Source: a virus
Lineage: Duplodnaviria > Heunggongvirae > Uroviricota > Caudoviricetes
Direction: 5' to 3' (one strand)
DNA length: 24,836 nucleotides
Virus record (IMG/VR): IMGVR_UViG_2703718834_000011
Coordinates: 1-24,836 of that record
The notes under the pieces were generated by a model. That model ran no database searches. It was given only the letters and a program-made list of their open reading frames with translations, and was not told the origin of the DNA. Below are positions 4,199 through 10,954 of the stretch, piece after piece. Within the stretch, counting starts at the first letter, position 1, and every line of letters starts with the position of its first letter. Made by a program: the position numbers and the translations under genes.

Positions 4199-5052
4199 GC
4201 ACCATCCTGAAATGGGCGGGAAATAAAACTGCCATAATGTCCGAACTGAAAAAACATCTTCCTGCTGGCCCGCGACTGGTTGAACCTTTCGCGGGTTCCT
4301 GTGCTGTGATGATGGAGACGGATTATCCCAGCTATCTGGTTGCGGATATTAATCCTGATTTAATCAACCTCTATAAAAAGGTTGCCGCTGATTGTGAATC
4401 GTTTATATCTCGCGCCAGAGTTTTATTTGAGATCGCAAACAGGGAGGTGGCTTATTACAACATAAGGCAGGAGTTTAATTACTCAACTGAAATTACTGAT
4501 TTCATGAGAGCGGTATATTTCCTGTATCTCAATCGTCACGGTTACCGTGGTTTATGTCGCTATAACAAGAGCGGGCATTTCAACATTCCCTACGGTAATT
4601 ATAAAAATCCGTATTTCCCTGAAAAAGAAATTCGCGCATTTGCAGAAAAGGCCCAGCGAGCAACGTTTATCTGCGCCAGCTTTGATGAAACGCTGGCGAT
4701 GTTGAAGGCGGGGGATGTGGTGTATTGCGATCCGCCGTATGACGGTACGTTTTCCGGCTATCACACTGACGGCTTCACTGAAGATGACCAGTATCACCTG
4801 GCATCTGTTCTTGAACATCGGTCATCAGAAGGACATCCGGTCATTGTTTCTAACAGTGACACATCCCTGATCCGTTCGCTGTATCGCAATTTTACTCACC
4901 ACTACATCAAGGCAAAACGCAGCATCGGTGTGGCAGCTGGCGAGGGTAAATCAGCAACAGAAATCATTGCTGTTTCCGGGCCGCGCTGCTGGGTGGGATT
5001 TGATTATTCGCGTGGCGTGGATAGTTCTGCCGTGTACGGAGTACGTGCATGA
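4195..5052 (+). CDS. dam: DNA adenine methyltransferase (Dam-like, GATC N6-adenine MTase)
   Basis: [11 protein letters not shown]..., FAGSCAV (AdoMet-binding motif I) and DPPY catalytic motif (CDPPYDGTF). Start at ATG 4195 with GGAGG RBS; the ORF-track N-terminal extension from 4135 overlaps the TraR-like gene and is rejected. Confidence 0.85.
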
Positions 5053-7463
5053 GTCATGCCGATATGAACAACTGCTGCGGCTTTAACGAAGCTGCCGCAT
5101 CGTTCTCATGGAACAGCCCGAAAAAGGCCATTAACCCTTATCTGGACCCGGTGGAAGTTGCGCCGGTTTCTACGCTTTCAAACCTGATCACTCTGTACAC
5201 TGCCGATAACGAGCAGGAACAGCTGCGCCGTGAGGCGCTGAGTGATCAGGTCTGGGAGCGTTATTTCTTTAATGAATCCCGTGATCCTGTCCAGCGCGAA
5301 ATGGAACAGGATAAGCTCATTAGTCGGGCAAAGCTGGCGCATGAGCAGCAGCGTTTTAATCCGGATATGGTCATTCTGGCGGACGTCAACGCCCAGCCTT
5401 CCCATATCAGCAAGCCGCTGATGCAACGTATTGAATACTTCAGCAGCCTGGGCAGGCCAAAGGCTTATTCCCGCTATTTACGTGAGACGATTAAGCCATG
5501 TCTGGAACGACTGGAGCATGTACGCGACAGTCAGCTATCTGCATCTTTTCGCTTTATGGCAAGCCATGAAGGGCTGGACGGCCTGCTGATCCTGCCTGAA
5601 ATGAGTCAGGATCAGGTGAAACGCCTGTCCACCCTGGTAGCTGCGCATATGAGTATGTGCCTTGATGCCGCTTGTGGCGATTTGTATGCCACCGATGACG
5701 TTAAGCCAGAGGAAATCCGCAATACATGGGAAAGGGTGGCAGCGGAAACCCTGCGTCTGGATGTCATCCCGCCTGCGTTTGAGCAACTCCGTCGGAAAAG
5801 AAACCGCCGTAAACCCGTGCCCTATGAACTCATTCCGGGTTCGCTGGCGCGTATGTTGTGCGCCGACTGGTGGTATCGGAAATTATGGAAGATGCGTTGC
5901 GAATGGCGGGAAGAGCAGTTGCGTGCAGTCTGCCTTGTCAGCAAAAAAGCATCTCCTTATGTCAGCTATGAAGCCGTGATGCATAAACGTGAGCAGCGCC
6001 GTAAGTCGCTGGAGTTTTTCCGTTCTCATGAACTGGTGAACGAAGACGGCGACACGCTGGACATGGAGGATGTGGTAAACGCCAGCAGCAGCAACCCAGC
6101 GCATCGCCGCAATGAGATGATGGCCTGTGTTAAAGGTCTGGAGCTTATCGCGGAAATGCGCGGTGACTGCGCCGTTTTCTACACCATCACCTGTCCGTCA
6201 CGTTTCCATTCCACGCTAAATAACGGCAGGCCCAACCCAACCTGGACAAATGCGACGGTAAGACAAAGCAGTGATTATCTGGTCGGCATGTTTGCTGCAT
6301 TTCGTAAGGCGATGCACAAAGCCGGATTGCGGTGGTATGGCGTGCGGGTGGCTGAGCCGCATCATGACGGTACAGTTCACTGGCACCTGTTGTGTTTTAT
6401 GCGCAAAAAAGACCGCCGCACCATCACTGCATTACTGCGTAAGTTTGCCATCCGTGAAGACCGCGAGGAGCTGGGCAATAACACTGGGCCGCGCTTTAAG
6501 TCTGAGTTGATTAACCCGCGCAAAGGTACGCCAACAAGCTACATCGCGAAATACATCAGTAAGAACATTGACGGGCGTGGTCTGGCTGGCGAGATCAGCA
6601 AGGAAACGGGGAAATCCCTGCGTGATAATGCTGAATACGTTAATGCCTGGGCGTCTCTGCATCGTGTTCAGCAATTCCGCTTCTTTGGCATTCCGGGGCG
6701 TCAGGCTTACCGTGAACTGCGATTGCTGGCTGGTCAGGCGGCAAGGCAACAGGGGGACAAAAAAGCAGGTGCGCCGGTACTGGATAACCCGCGCCTTGAT
6801 GCCATTCTGGCTGCTGCTGATGCTGGTTGTTTTGCCACCTACATCATGAAGCAGGGTGGCGTACTGGTTCCCCGCAAATATCACCTCATCAGAACTGCTT
6901 ATGAAATCAACGAAGAGCCGACCGCCTATGGCGATCACGGCATTCGTATTTATGGCATCTGGTCACCTATTGCAGAGGGCAAGATCTGCACTCATGCCGT
7001 GAAGTGGAAAATGGTTCGTAAGGCCGTTGACGTTCAGGAGGCGGCAGCCGACCAGGGCGCTTGCGCCCCTTGGACTCGTGGCAATAACTGTCCCCTTGCT
7101 GAAAATTTGAACCAACAGGAGAAAGATAAATCAGCAGATGGGGACCCCAGAACGGATATTATCAGCATGGATGACAAGGAGTTGCACGATTTCCTGCACA
7201 GTATGAGCAAAAAAGAGCGCCGGGAACTGGCAGAAAGGCTACGCCTGGTTAAACCGATACGGCGTAAAGACTACAAACAGCGAATTACAGACCATCAGCG
7301 ACTGCAGCTCGTCTATGAGCTGAAGTCCAGAGGATTTGATGGTAGCGAGAAAGAGGTCGATTTACTCCTTCGCGGCGGCAGTATTCCGTCAGGAGCAGGC
7401 CTGCGTATCTTCTATCGGAACCAGCGTTTGCGGGAAGATGATAAGTGGCGGAACCTGTATTAA
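5049..7463 (+). CDS. A: Replication initiation protein A (rolling-circle HUH endonuclease, P2 gpA / 186 A family)
   Basis: 804-aa ORF with HUH-type motif GTVHWHLL and tyrosine-containing motif YIAKYISK; position after the early operon matches P2/186; start ATG overlaps dam stop (ATGA). Confidence 0.9.
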
Positions 7464-7555
7464 TTACGCGGGTTAACAATTCGTGCTCTAAATAATACCC
7501 GGTATATCAGGCTGATGAACGTAAAAAAACGTTTTACATCAGTAAGATTATTGTA

Positions 7556-7575
7556 TACTGTGAATATAAACAGTG
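7556..7575. promoter_or_regulatory. LexA (SOS) box TACTGTGAATATAAACAGTG, with a degenerate second half-site immediately downstream
   Basis: CTGT-N8-ACAG spacing with AT-rich centre; overlaps a possible promoter (TTTACA 7533-7538, TATACT 7554-7559); about 40 bp upstream of the ATG at 7617. Confidence 0.55.
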
Positions 7576-7616
7576 GTTATATATACAGTATTGCGTGTGG
7601 TGTCATAGGAGGAAAA

Positions 7617-7805
7617 ATGCAGGACTATTTTTTGGAGTCTTTGAAGCTCCAGCGCATTGATTTTTTTCTTAAGCTTGTCGCGGCTAGTGAGTGTAGTGAT
7701 GAAGAGAAGGGGCTGGCTCTGCAGTGGGTTTCTGAATTGACTGATGAACTTATGGCAAAAATCAGAACTCACGAATACAACCGCTCAATGGATGTCATCA
7801 GTTGA
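7617..7805 (+). CDS. Small hypothetical protein (62 aa), first gene of a LexA-box-preceded pair; possible Tum-like antirepressor module
   Basis: ATG 7617 preceded by AGGAGG; the ORF-track upstream extension (7515) would run across the LexA box and is rejected. Confidence 0.45.
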   Translation: MQDYFLESLKLQRIDFFLKLVAASECSDEEKGLALQWVSELTDELMAKIRTHEYNRSMDVIS

Positions 7806-7815
7806 GGTGACTTTT

Positions 7816-8049
7816 ATGCGCATTGAAATAATGATCGATAAAGAGCAGAAGATTAGCCAGTCTACCCTGGACGCCCTTGAATCCGAGCTTTACCGCAATC
7901 TGCGCCCCCTGTATCCCAAAACGGTAATTCGTATCCGAAAAGGTAGCTCTAACGGTGTGGAACTGACCGGACTGCAACTGGACGAAGAAAGAAAACAAGT
8001 GATGAAAATTATGCAGAAGGTGTGGGAAGACGACAGCTGGCTGCATTAA
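7816..8049 (+). CDS. DinI-family protein (DNA-damage-inducible protein I-like), 77 aa
   Basis: MRIEIMIDKEQ...LDALESELYRNL...KQVMKIMQKVWEDDSWLH aligns by eye with E. coli DinI (MRIEVTIAK...IDALAGELSRRI...ISEILQETWESADDWF); GAGGTG RBS; start at ATG 7816. Confidence 0.72.
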   Translation: MRIEIMIDKEQKISQSTLDALESELYRNLRPLYPKTVIRIRKGSSNGVELTGLQLDEERKQVMKIMQKVWEDDSWLH

Positions 8050-8138: not shown

Positions 8139-8696
8139 TCACATAAACATCTGGATTTGCTCGTTTTTTAGTTGGTTGATTTTTTCGCGCAATCTGATCT
8201 TTTCATCAGCTTTTTCCAAAGAGGCTGGTGACATGCAGTTAATCAAAGCGTCAAGGTGCTCTGGAGATTTGATAATAAAGAACTTTTTGTATTTATTAAC
8301 AAAAACGACAGAGCATTTTTTACGTTTAAGAAGCTCAATCACGTTACTCAGAGTACCCGTGCTCTTCGTATCCCAAACCATTAATCCATAATCGGCTTCT
8401 TCTGCCATTTTGAGATCTTTCGCAGTGAAAAACGCGCGAGTGCCGGCTGCATGGCTAGTACTTACTACATGTACAGGCCATGAGCCAAGATTATTGCGCG
8501 GTTTTTCTGAGCTACTGAATACTGTGGCTTTTTTACATCCAAGTTCTAGCAATACGCGTTGAACAGATGAATCAACACCATTGGCATCACCAACTACAAT
8601 ACGAAAACGCGAGTTAACAATTTTTTTCAGACGATCCACGATGAGTGTGTCAAGGTTTTTGATGGTTATTGAACCAGCAACAAATACCGTAGTCAT
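8139..8696 (-). CDS. SLOG / DprA-like Rossmann-fold protein (about 185 aa), downstream partner of the PRTase gene
   Basis: VFVAGSITIKNLD...RIVVGDANGVDSSVQRVLLELG...GLMVWDTKSTGTLSNVIELLKRKKCSVVFV resembles the DprA/LOG fold (compare DprA VVSGLARGID ... SGSLITARLALEQG). Start set at ATG 8694-8696 (GGAG RBS), 2 nt after the PRTase stop; the track start 8708 is TTG. Confidence 0.6.
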   Translation of the reverse strand: MTTVFVAGSITIKNLDTLIVDRLKKIVNSRFRIVVGDANGVDSSVQRVLLELGCKKATVFSSSEKPRNNLGSWPVHVVSTSHAAGTRAFFTAKDLKMAEEADYGLMVWDTKSTGTLSNVIELLKRKKCSVVFVNKYKKFFIIKSPEHLDALINCMSPASLEKADEKIRLREKINQLKNEQIQMFM

Positions 8697-8698
8697 CA

Positions 8699-9280
8699 CT
8701 ATCTCCAAGTCAAAGCTGCAACATAAATGCTTCTAACCTTAGTATAATCGTTTAGCACAGCACAAGCAGCCTCCATAGATGCGCCTGTATGGTAGAGGTC
8801 GTCAATGATAAGGACATTCCAGTTGCCATTATTCTCAATACTGTCATTAACAGAGAACGAATTACCCAGCGCCGTGATTTTCTCTTCTTTTGTATTCAGG
8901 TTCTTTAGCGAAGCCCCGCCGGGGGCTTTCAACAAGAGGTCATCGAAGCATGGTTTGCCAACTAGTTTGGCTAGTTCCTGAGCTATTTCGGTCACTGGCT
9001 GGCGTGCACGCTGATTAGATGCAGCCATTGGAACGATAAACCCGACATTGCTGAAATGAGGAAAGGCATGCTCTGCTAGGCATTGGGCTAAAGGCTTAAC
9101 TTGTGACCAATCGTCACGGTATTTAAGCTGGAAAAGAGATTCGCCTACCTCAGTACGCTCAGTCTCAAACCGCATATGTCCCCACTCATCGTAACCAATG
9201 GGAATGCTGCGGATGCTGTGTTTATCCATCGCAAGACCTAATTCCCAATTTCCAACAATCTGTTTTATGTTGACTTTCAT
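8699..9280 (-). CDS. Type I phosphoribosyltransferase-domain protein (ComF/PRTase-like), 193 aa
   Basis: C-terminal PRPP-binding motif NVLIIDDLYHTGASMEAA (hydrophobic-DD-x-x-TG-x-S/T); ATG at 9280 with RBS; tightly coupled to the SLOG gene. Confidence 0.7.
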   Translation of the reverse strand: MKVNIKQIVGNWELGLAMDKHSIRSIPIGYDEWGHMRFETERTEVGESLFQLKYRDDWSQVKPLAQCLAEHAFPHFSNVGFIVPMAASNQRARQPVTEIAQELAKLVGKPCFDDLLLKAPGGASLKNLNTKEEKITALGNSFSVNDSIENNGNWNVLIIDDLYHTGASMEAACAVLNDYTKVRSIYVAALTWR

Positions 9281-9551
9281 GGCTCACCGTTTGCTGTGTA
9301 AAACACCAAAGATTACCTCTTGTTATATTTGGTGAAAGCGAAAGTTTCATTTTTTGCAGTGGAGATCAAATGTTACTCCGTGAACATTTTTAGCATGTGG
9401 CCTCGCTACACGGTTTGGCGTAACTACTGCATGTCTATACTGCATGAATCCGCATGATCGTTTAAGGATCGCTCTAGTTGGGGCCTGCTAGGTATGGCGG
9501 GCTTTTGCTTATGTCATGCAGGTGCATGAAAACCACTATATAAAGCGGGCA

Positions 9552-9570
9552 GGCGTGGCGGGGATACGAG
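9552..9570 (+). other. Candidate cos cohesive-end site (GGCGTGGCGGGGATACGAG)
   Basis: First 13 nt match the 186/P2 cos sequences as I recall them (186 GGCGTGGCGGGGAAAGCAT; P2 GGCGAGGCGGGGAAAGCAC), followed by GCGCGCTG; orientation relative to Q matches P2. Confidence 0.45.
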
Positions 9571-9583
9571 CGCGCGCTGGTTA

Positions 9584-9611
9584 ATTTATATGAGAACAAT
9601 CTCATATAAAT
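9584..9611. repeat. Perfect 12-bp inverted repeat with 4-bp spacer (ATTTATATGAGA-acaa-TCTCATATAAAT)
   Basis: Read directly from the sequence; about 14 bp right of the cos-like site and about 75 bp upstream of the ATPase start. Confidence 0.6.
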
Positions 9612-9685: not shown

Positions 9686-10954
9686 ATGGAAATTTTTGAT
9701 ACGAATGATATCTTTGGGCTCTCAAGAGATTTGCCACTTAATTACATTGAAAGACCTGATGTTGATTTCAAACTTAAACAGGAATTACAAGCAAAGAAAC
9801 ATATTGTTATTTACGGCAGTTCAAAGCAGGGTAAGACTTGCGTAAGAAAACACTGTATTAATTCTGATGATTATATTTTGGTGCAGTGTTCGAATCGTTC
9901 TGATGTATCTGAATTGAATGCAAGTATTTTAAAAAGAGCTGGATTCGAAATAACTCAGTCTACCAAGAAAGGTATTACGGGGAAAAATAAAATAATCGCA
10001 TCAATAAAAACTTCTATTTTGGGCTTTGTGGCGAGTGCCGGAGGCGAGATCGAAGATACGAAATCTCATGAACAAGTAACCGCGCCTTTAGAAATTGATG
10101 TTGATGATGTTAATGATGTTATAGCGGCTTTAAAATCTATAAATTTCAAGAAGATTATCGTTCTTGAGGATTTTCATTATATGCCTTTCGAAACTCAAAG
10201 AGATTTTTCGATCGCATTAAAAGCCTTTCATGAAACATCAAGCATTATTTTTGTAATTGTTGGAGTTTGGCTAGAAGATAATCGGCTCATTGTCTACAAT
10301 GGTGACTTAACTGGCAGGATTATTTCTGTTAACGCAGACAAATGGCAAGATTCTGAACTGGAGATGGCAATTGATAAAGGAGGTTTACTCCTTAACATTG
10401 ATTTTGATCCAACTTTCAAAGCAGATGTAGTAACACACTGTCTCAATAGTATTTATTTAGTGCAAGAAGCATGTAGGCGTGCGTGTATTGAATGCGGAAT
10501 ATCAGAGACTCAGCAAACAAAAAGAACTATTGGAGCTGGTTTGGATGGAAAGGATATCATTGCAAAAATTGTTAATGACCAATCGGCTCGTTACAATTCT
10601 TTCCTTATTAATTTTTCAGATGGATTTCAAGATACTGAACTTCAAATGCATAAATGGATTTTATATCCTGTCCTTTCATCAACCATTAGTGAACTTGAAT
10701 TAGGTTTGAAATTTAAAGATATAAGGGCAATATTACAAAGTGTACATCCAAGAGGGGAGAAGTTAAACCTGGGTAATGTTACTCAGTCGTTACAATCAAC
10801 GGCGTCTTTGCAAATAAAGAAAAATATAATGCCTATTATTTTGGATTATGACCAAACAAATAGGAAACTGAATGTTGTTGATAAAGGCTTCCTAATATGG
10901 TTGCAACATCAAGATATCAAAGATCTAAAGGATGATTTGGAGTTGCCAAATTAA
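9686..10954 (+). CDS. P-loop NTPase (Walker A and B), 422 aa, AT-rich; candidate single-gene defence or moron ATPase
   Basis: Walker A IVIYGSSKQGKTC (GxxxxGKT) and Walker B KKIIVLEDFH; ATG at 9686; C-terminal about 250 aa without recognisable motif; visibly lower G+C than flanking phage genes; sits between the cos-like site and Q. Confidence 0.65.
   Translation: MEIFDTNDIFGLSRDLPLNYIERPDVDFKLKQELQAKKHIVIYGSSKQGKTCVRKHCINSDDYILVQCSNRSDVSELNASILKRAGFEITQSTKKGITGKNKIIASIKTSILGFVASAGGEIEDTKSHEQVTAPLEIDVDDVNDVIAALKSINFKKIIVLEDFHYMPFETQRDFSIALKAFHETSSIIFVIVGVWLEDNRLIVYNGDLTGRIISVNADKWQDSELEMAIDKGGLLLNIDFDPTFKADVVTHCLNSIYLVQEACRRACIECGISETQQTKRTIGAGLDGKDIIAKIVNDQSARYNSFLINFSDGFQDTELQMHKWILYPVLSSTISELELGLKFKDIRAILQSVHPRGEKLNLGNVTQSLQSTASLQIKKNIMPIILDYDQTNRKLNVVDKGFLIWLQHQDIKDLKDDLELPN

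Follow-up and report, generated by a model that had tools for sequence, protein, structure and literature searches.

The contig IMGVR_UViG_2703718834_000011 of IMG/VR (the window, analysed here over its entire length of 24,836 nucleotides) carries a P2-like prophage in which two coupled minus-strand genes, lying between the gpA/DinI side and the cos-like site, encode a compact type I phosphoribosyltransferase (PRTase) and a partner protein of SLOG fold. The pair is probably a minimal cassette of toxin and antidote, carried by the prophage for abortive infection or the exclusion of other phages. A sequence-only reading of the locus had described it as ShosTA-like, perhaps a minimal or distinct variant, and that description is supported by matches of the PADLOC ShosT and PsyrT profiles, by the ComF/ShosT and ShosA folds of the two proteins and by the toxin-antidote signatures found in related genomes. 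The arrangement it reported for the two genes, with a stop codon, two nucleotides and a start codon at the junction, was borne out, and the motifs it quoted are present at residues 156–168 of the PRTase (VLIIDDLYHTGAS) and residues 34–42 (VVGDANGVD) and 109–115 (DTKSTGT) of the partner. The module comprises the following elements.

8699..9280, minus strand: gene 1, PRTase of 193 amino acids, a type I phosphoribosyltransferase of the ComF/ShosT clade and candidate toxin
8139..8696, minus strand: gene 2, SLOG-fold partner of 185 amino acids, candidate antidote or regulator
8694..8706, minus strand: coupling junction, with the Shine-Dalgarno sequence GGAG (8706-8703) inside the end of gene 1, the stop codon TAG (8701-8699), the 2-nt spacer TG and the partner start codon ATG (8696-8694)

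Both open reading frames are real genes, because each has a large set of homologues, nearly all of the same length (741 clusters at 90% identity with E values down to 1e-116 for the PRTase; 1810 clusters at 90% identity with E values down to 1e-106 for the partner), and because both yield confident AlphaFold2 models, with mean predicted local distance difference test scores (pLDDT) of 91.9 and 93.7, respectively. An exhaustive profile search for relatives of the partner at E≤1e-3 retrieved 2089 clusters at 50% identity. Gene 2 starts at the ATG at 8696, as it does in every homologue, while the mechanical list of open reading frames extends it to a TTG at 8708.

The genomic record of the family has several features of a toxin and its antidote. 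In other taxa the PRTase gene lies directly upstream of the partner gene on the same strand, with a gap of 3–10 nt including the stop codon, and the pairwise distances of the two proteins are strongly correlated (r = 0.84, Mantel p = 0.001, 132 pairs). At loci ascertained through the SLOG gene, the PRTase is truncated, frameshifted, disrupted by an insertion sequence (IS) or deleted in 19 of 80 cases (IS-disrupted in L004, frameshifted in L037, L050 and L079, and otherwise lost or present as a C-terminal remnant), and at informative loci ascertained through the PRTase, an intact SLOG gene is missing in none of 86. A PRTase that is harmful without its partner would give this asymmetry, which is significant (Fisher p = 2.7e-7) and stays so after conservative collapse of related Pseudomonas events (p = 5e-5), the latter being needed as several of the Pseudomonas decays are of common ancestry; the two sets were also sampled differently, one from species genomes and the other from metagenome and viral contigs. 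Decay classes were assigned from open reading frames plus coverage, superseding a looser first count (14/80 versus 0/88) that undercounted degraded PRTases. In three Pseudomonas loci (L064, L067 and L078, at about 5600–7630), genes for a 449-aa ATPase and a 212-aa protein take the place of the 5' portion of the PRTase gene; of the PRTase itself a C-terminal remnant or nothing is left, and the SLOG gene is intact. PADLOC AriA-type matches occur among the neighbours.

Fusions add to this picture. Homologues of about 280 aa on Rhizobiaceae plasmids combine the SLOG core with one of two C-terminal helix-turn-helix (HTH) domains of antitoxin type, all matching past curated cut-offs (PF21716/TIGR02684 'addiction module antidote' at 1.6e-21 and 1e-23; HTH_37 at 1.8e-19). 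Examples are found on an A. fabrum plasmid (L186:4001-4858) and an S. meliloti plasmid (L187:4001-4837), with the domains dnstrm_HI1420 and HTH_37; in each, the fused gene directly follows a gene for a 196-aa ComF-family PRTase, and SIR2, HNH, VapC and ImmA/IrrE genes are among the neighbours. Among 43 long members of the SLOG family, seven carry an antidote-type HTH, two a NADAR domain and one each a YhfG, Abi_alpha or HEPN_AbiU2 domain. P0372 (404 aa) is a complete single-chain PRTase-SLOG fusion in gene order (PRTase part E 1.2e-34), and P0279 (344 aa) and P0294 (364 aa) have an N-terminal extension of about 150–160 residues ahead of the SLOG core. Because of its fusions to HTH, Abi, HEPN_AbiU2, NADAR and PRTase domains, the SLOG clade looks like a portable module tied to conflict systems. 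The generic marks of a toxin-antitoxin system are present as well: small co-directional coupled genes, no toxin without an antidote, orphan antidotes, and relatives linked to antitoxin HTH domains.

The PRTase looks catalytically active, because its loop for binding phosphoribosyl pyrophosphate (PRPP) and its motif resembling a pyrophosphate (PPi) loop are invariant in the family. Invariance extends to D160, T165 and G166 of the PRPP loop, with D161 close to it, and to P84, A87, S88, R91, R93, Q94 and P95 of the PPi-loop-like motif PMAASNQRARQP. The N-terminus forms a small beta-sheet domain (residues 6–42, with invariant D19-K20-H21) where ComFC has its zinc finger. With the PRTase model, Foldseek returned 81 chains of the PDB at E≤1e-3, the best being H. 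pylori ComF (7p0h, E 1.3e-5, TM 0.63), HP1257 and ShosT, the last with E values of 3e-5 to 1e-4 for 8zvd and 8zvb (best 3.4e-5); adenine phosphoribosyltransferases (APRTs) also match. Among profiles, PADLOC ShosT (E 1.3e-8) and PsyrT (E 1.5e-7) match the protein, Pfam PF00156 covers the PRPP loop only and stays under its cut-off, and TIGR00201 (comF) reaches 23.8 bits, the cut-off being 233.55. A search of the solved-structure sequences with the single sequence and with the family profile found no ComF, only the PRPP loop of APRT and hypoxanthine-guanine phosphoribosyltransferase (HGPRT).

The partner model has a Rossmann-like core at residues 3–142, with beta-1 beginning at residue 3, and a three-helix C-terminal extension at residues 145–184; its glycine-rich ligand-binding loops are those of the SLOG fold. 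The motifs GS, GDAxGxD, PRNNxGxW, AKD and WDxKSxGT..N..E are invariant in the family. In Foldseek the first match of the model is ShosA (8zva, E 6.7e-5), followed by HpDprA, and the fold is about equidistant from YpsA, LOG, DprA and ShosA. Judged from the model, the partner clearly belongs to the SLOG superfamily and not specifically to DprA. PF02481 reaches 11.8 bits with a cut-off of 29.6, the PADLOC ShosA profile gives no match at E≤1, PsyrA matches weakly (0.0072), no Pfam family of the partner's own was found, and searches of the solved-structure sequences with the single sequence and the family profile returned neither DprA nor ShosA. Kinship of the PRTase to ComF/ShosT and of the partner to DprA/ShosA is, on these predicted structures, visible at the fold level only. 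In the profile searches suggested by the sequence-only reading, ShosT and PsyrT matched the PRTase, PF00156 and PF02481 remained under cut-off and ShosA gave nothing; in the structural comparison that it also suggested, gene 1 groups with the ComFC/ShosT PRTases and gene 2 with the SLOG fold including ShosA and DprA. The C-terminal tail of the partner (residues 176–185, window 8139-8171) reads L-K-N/H-x-Q-x-x-hydrophobic-hydrophobic and is kept across phyla; as pure speculation, it might be a protease degron, by analogy with the reported C-terminus-dependent instability of ShosA.

ShosTA of E. coli APEC O1 (PDB 8zva, 8zvb-d) is the 'DprA + PRTase' system 9 of Rousset et al., which resides in the P2 hotspot and protects against T7 and lambda (PMC9122126). 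Later work analysed this system in structural terms. The likeness to the compact pair lies in the two-gene combination of a PRTase and a SLOG-fold partner in that same hotspot, the conserved PRPP DD motif and the fold matches of both proteins. ShosT toxicity needs this motif, D331/D332 (PMC11961720, PMC12961424). In ShosA, which also binds RecA, R139, R234 and R261, which correspond to R52/R143/R170 of HpDprA, are required for binding of single-stranded DNA (ssDNA) and for antitoxicity (PMC12961424), and neutralisation is reported as indirect, by a DNA-repair route via RecA and ssDNA. If the compact pair were of this true ShosTA type (type IV), the partner would leave the PRTase alone, bind ssDNA and RecA and repair the DNA damage done by the toxin. 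The Foldseek ranking of ShosA and HpDprA, the weak PsyrA match and the strongly basic character of the partner (pI 9.6, family median 9.3) are consistent with such a role. However, R139, R234 and R261 of ShosA align to I10, A92 and I120 of the partner in the motif-anchored hhalign register, a low-confidence mapping that rests on the correspondences GTR/GSI, RRNR/AKD and SGTSHTVR/STGTLSNVI; the partner has no counterpart of the N-terminal SAM domain of ShosA; and the PF02481 score is far from its cut-off. The single-chain fusion P0372 and the type II-style HTH fusions also suggest direct coupling, and fusions in general favour such coupling of partner and PRTase over ShosA-style neutralisation through RecA and ssDNA. 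We regard the ShosTA-type explanation as quite improbable.

Size separates the systems further. ShosT has 424 aa and ShosA about 328 aa (PMC11961720, PMC12961424), so that the 193- and 185-aa proteins are shorter than both, as the sequence-only reading had remarked. ShosT begins with a HAD-type pyrophosphatase domain (residues 1–164), in place of which the compact PRTase has its beta-sheet N-terminus of about 40 residues and no Pfam or NCBIfam match to a HAD domain. With neither HAD nor SAM domain, no arginine triad and no match to the ShosA profile, the compact pair is not canonical ShosTA.

Nor is it a member of PsyrTA/RqlHI or ComFC. PsyrTA/RqlHI likewise combines a PRTase-domain toxin with a SLOG/DprA-like antitoxin, the PRTase region of PsyrT matching gene 1 and PsyrA, weakly, gene 2; in PsyrT (about 690 aa), however, the PRTase is fused to a RecQ-like helicase, a region that the compact PRTase lacks, and only positions 538–681 of the 689 in the PsyrT profile are matched. 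ComFC and DprA form the same pair of folds, and HpComF is the top structural match of gene 1, whereas the four-cysteine zinc finger of ComFC is absent from the PRTase (in 32 of 36 family members the first 50 residues contain no cysteine, and never more than one), the TIGR00201 and PF02481 scores are far under their cut-offs, and the compact pair has no competence-gene context and a sporadic, mobile spread. Type III retron effectors, Ophion OpnC and the 'NADR' system of DefensePredictor share the use of a PRTase as anti-phage effector, and mutants of their PRPP motif lose defence; their PRTases are larger, with extra domains, and are partnered by reverse transcriptase and msDNA, by radical SAM (rSAM) plus PHP proteins, and by NADAR, respectively.

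LOG phosphoribohydrolases, whose fold the partner shares, cleave the N-glycosidic bond of a phosphoribosylated base, using the catalytic motif PGGxGTxxE plus an upstream arginine. Such chemistry raises the prospect of a PRPP-based writer/eraser pair resembling DarTG, in which the PRTase would phosphoribosylate a nucleobase (in a nucleotide or in DNA or RNA), the SLOG protein would remove the modification and infection would tip the balance towards it. The invariant polar residues around the SLOG pocket, the fusions of the SLOG clade to NADAR, which is of N-glycosidase type, and the PRTase plus NADAR pair ('NADR'), a validated defence system, are compatible with this scheme, which is, in our estimate, rather improbable. 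By manual motif alignment, the LOG motif reads KSxGTLSN in the partner family (KSTGTLSN here), without a glutamate at T+2 or T+3 and with the invariant E121 at T+6; the positions of R-K in LOG and RNR in DprA are occupied by AKD (K93-D94), and the invariant PRNNxGxW loop is unique to the partner family compared with YpsA, LOG and the SLOG domain of ThsA. A related reading holds that the SLOG clade may be a portable ligand-sensing switch for PRTase, HEPN_AbiU2 and Abi_alpha effectors.

The distribution of the pair is sporadic. Of 5426 complete E. coli genomes, 33 have it: 16 at ≥99% identity and a further 17 as copies at 66–68% nucleotide identity. One of the ≥99% copies, when inspected, occupied the same P2 slot with different co-cargo alongside. 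The divergent E. coli copies are found on plasmids of about 54–64 kb beside parA/parG, ParDE and restriction-modification (RM) genes and in a CP4-57-like island adjoining Hachiman; a P2-like prophage remnant of E. coli STEC409 has a copy (L083:8533-9680, about 68% nucleotide identity) in the interval from gpD to ogr, beside a Hok/Gef gene, so that this interval is a second P2-like cargo site with the same kind of module. Beyond E. coli, a relative is present in 374 of 185,579 species (one genome per species; about 0.2%), covering Gamma- and Betaproteobacteria, Acidobacteria, deltaproteobacterial metagenome-assembled genomes (MAGs) and one Peptococcaceae MAG, on 100 plasmids, of which 55 are conjugative, and on 14 IMG/VR contigs, only the four closest being P2-like. 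In Providencia a lambdoid prophage carries a copy at its integrase end, and a Neisseria dentiae copy is inserted between housekeeping genes. Among 286 non-redundant open reading frames neighbouring 60 loci, no family occurs more than three to five times; the matches include Hachiman, type I RM, DRT8, Kiwa, RmrTA, CBASS, PDC-S21, integrases, transposases and ordinary metabolic genes. The pair is a self-contained mobile cassette of prophages, plasmids and defence islands. Conservation as housekeeping genes, which the sequence-only reading had named as an argument against a defence role, was not seen, and a housekeeping operon is ruled out by the lack of a conserved neighbourhood together with the prevalence of about 0.2% of species.

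This distribution bears on whom the cassette serves. A module of benefit to the phage, acting in nucleotide salvage, in counter-defence (by refilling nucleotides or as a signal sponge through the SLOG pocket) or in ssDNA handling like ComFC/DprA, is highly improbable: 50,697 sequenced phage genomes contain no homologue of the partner and one marginal match to the PRTase, plasmids, chromosomal islands and even sites between housekeeping genes also harbour the pair, recurrent decay of the PRTase with the partner kept is unexpected for a beneficial enzyme, and the PRTase lacks both the ComFC zinc finger and a TIGR00201 score near the cut-off. A plain addiction or stabilisation toxin-antitoxin system that keeps its carrier (prophage, plasmid or island) and has no anti-phage role is less remote, though we consider it unlikely. 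In its favour, plasmid copies in E. coli and Klebsiella adjoin parA/parG and ParDE, relatives are carried by the plasmids counted above, more than half of them conjugative, HTH-fused partners are annotated as addiction-module antidotes, and the decay asymmetry points to toxicity, not to defence. On the other side, experiments support the P2 slot as a reservoir of anti-phage cargo (PMC9122126), defence systems are enriched among the neighbours in other taxa, and the related PRTase plus SLOG systems ShosTA and PsyrTA are both phage-protective; addiction and defence are also not mutually exclusive. A defence role is likely, and the sporadic, mobile distribution and the residence in a defence hotspot and in defence islands are the features generally found in defence systems.

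For the favoured toxin-antidote cassette, we infer toxicity of the PRTase, its neutralisation by the partner, a trigger, an acceptor substrate and phage protection. An unrestrained PRTase would use PRPP, perturb PRPP and nucleotide pools and arrest the cell, by analogy with the effect of mutating the DD motif of ShosT and with the depletion of PRPP by the PRTase of Retron-Eco11 (PMC12746101). Translational coupling would set a fixed proportion of partner to PRTase, and the SLOG partner would keep the PRTase harmless, most likely by direct association and not by the DNA-repair route of ShosA. The conserved SLOG pocket may double as a sensor of infection; an incoming phage, by shutting off the host or by way of a ligand or nucleic acid derived from it, would remove or occupy the antidote and so release the PRTase.

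Several points weigh against this proposal. Transfer of mechanism from ShosTA is weak, because sequence similarity is marginal and the profiles reach no solved DprA or ShosA; to the missing SAM domain and arginine triad is added an hhalign probability of 2–3% against APEC O1 ShosA and ShosT (1.9% for ShosA), with matches in the motifs only, and these alignments serve residue mapping, not as evidence of homology. The sampling of the decay sets and the shared ancestry of Pseudomonas events, as given above, reduce the weight of the asymmetry, and plasmid copies among partition and addiction genes fit stabilisation as well as defence. A consensus scan for promoters and terminators returned none above shuffle expectation, and the operon has no assigned promoter. 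The PADLOC v2 system models do not include the compact pair apart from weak component matches, the searched literature, accession searches included, contains no experimental test of it, and it is absent from the table of cloned and tested systems (Table S2) of Rousset et al.

The latter authors surveyed the gpA-gpQ hotspot of P2-like prophages in 2022 (PMC9122126), and system 98 of the P2 hotspot in their Table S5B is the same pair, with an identical PRTase and a partner that differs by one residue (E for K). It is listed with 33 occurrences in E. coli as a catalogue entry with HHpred-style domain labels, and nothing is said there of function, toxicity or occurrence beyond E. coli (PMC9122126). 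The compact pair has thus already been catalogued as an observation and is not new. Other leads from the literature, namely a modularity-network preprint (Ophion), DefensePredictor (NADR) and a paper on the END nuclease, concern other systems.

The surrounding elements of the locus are listed below.

5049-7463: gpA, the P2 replication gene A
7816-8049: DinI-like gene
9281..9550, minus strand: operon leader and presumed promoter region, with the ribosome-binding site GGTGAG at 9288-9283
9551..9569, no strand assigned: cos-like site GGCGTGGCGGGGATACGAG, boundary of the cargo slot and context rather than part of the module

The pair follows gpA and the DinI-like gene and precedes the cos-like site, confirming the position between gene A and a cos-like site proposed from the sequence. 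Its GC content (0.40–0.47) is below that of the phage backbone (0.53–0.60). Within the leader, an imperfect 13-nt inverted repeat (9304-9316 / 9322-9334, CACCAAAGATTAC / GTTATATTTGGTG) lies 24–54 nt ahead of the start codon of the PRTase gene. It could be an operator; leader and repeat are kept in the P2-like locus L095 (89% identical). The cos-like site was recognised by eye from its layout, its flanks being arranged as in the P2 cos region of the pFR105 insert (Rousset Table S2) and conserved in L095; 5 of its 19 positions differ from the P2 cos 19-mer, and a search for that 19-mer with up to 3 mismatches gave no match. Just past the site, 9584-9595 and 9600-9611 form a perfect 12-nt palindrome. 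On the gpA side, an open reading frame of 96 aa at 7515-7805 probably corresponds to the phrog_698 gene of 62 aa, starting near 7617, whose counterpart in a matching E. coli prophage is annotated as a 189-bp hypothetical gene. Beyond the cos-like site and before the portal gene Q, positions 9686-10954 of the window (plus strand) encode a 422-aa protein with a match (E 4.8e-72) to PDC-S59, a candidate defence family of PADLOC, and a weak AAA_22/TniB P-loop signal; the GC content is only 0.33–0.36, so that cargo flanks cos on both sides. The locus is an example of modular cargo exchange on either side of P2 cos.

Systems composed of a PRTase toxin and a SLOG/DprA-like antidote, such as ShosTA and PsyrTA, are validated anti-phage systems. 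The compact family represents their minimal form: each protein has about 190 aa and is free of accessory domains, the models are of high confidence, and conservation across phyla is very strong. It holds little to surprise a specialist, yet it is the smallest and most tractable of its class. Recognising it would give defence-annotation tools, which now show weak component matches only, a widespread family. If active, the pair would offer the simplest setting for finding what a ComF-clade PRTase modifies and how a bare SLOG domain restrains it, and it may help to explain why the competence protein ComFC has a PRTase domain.

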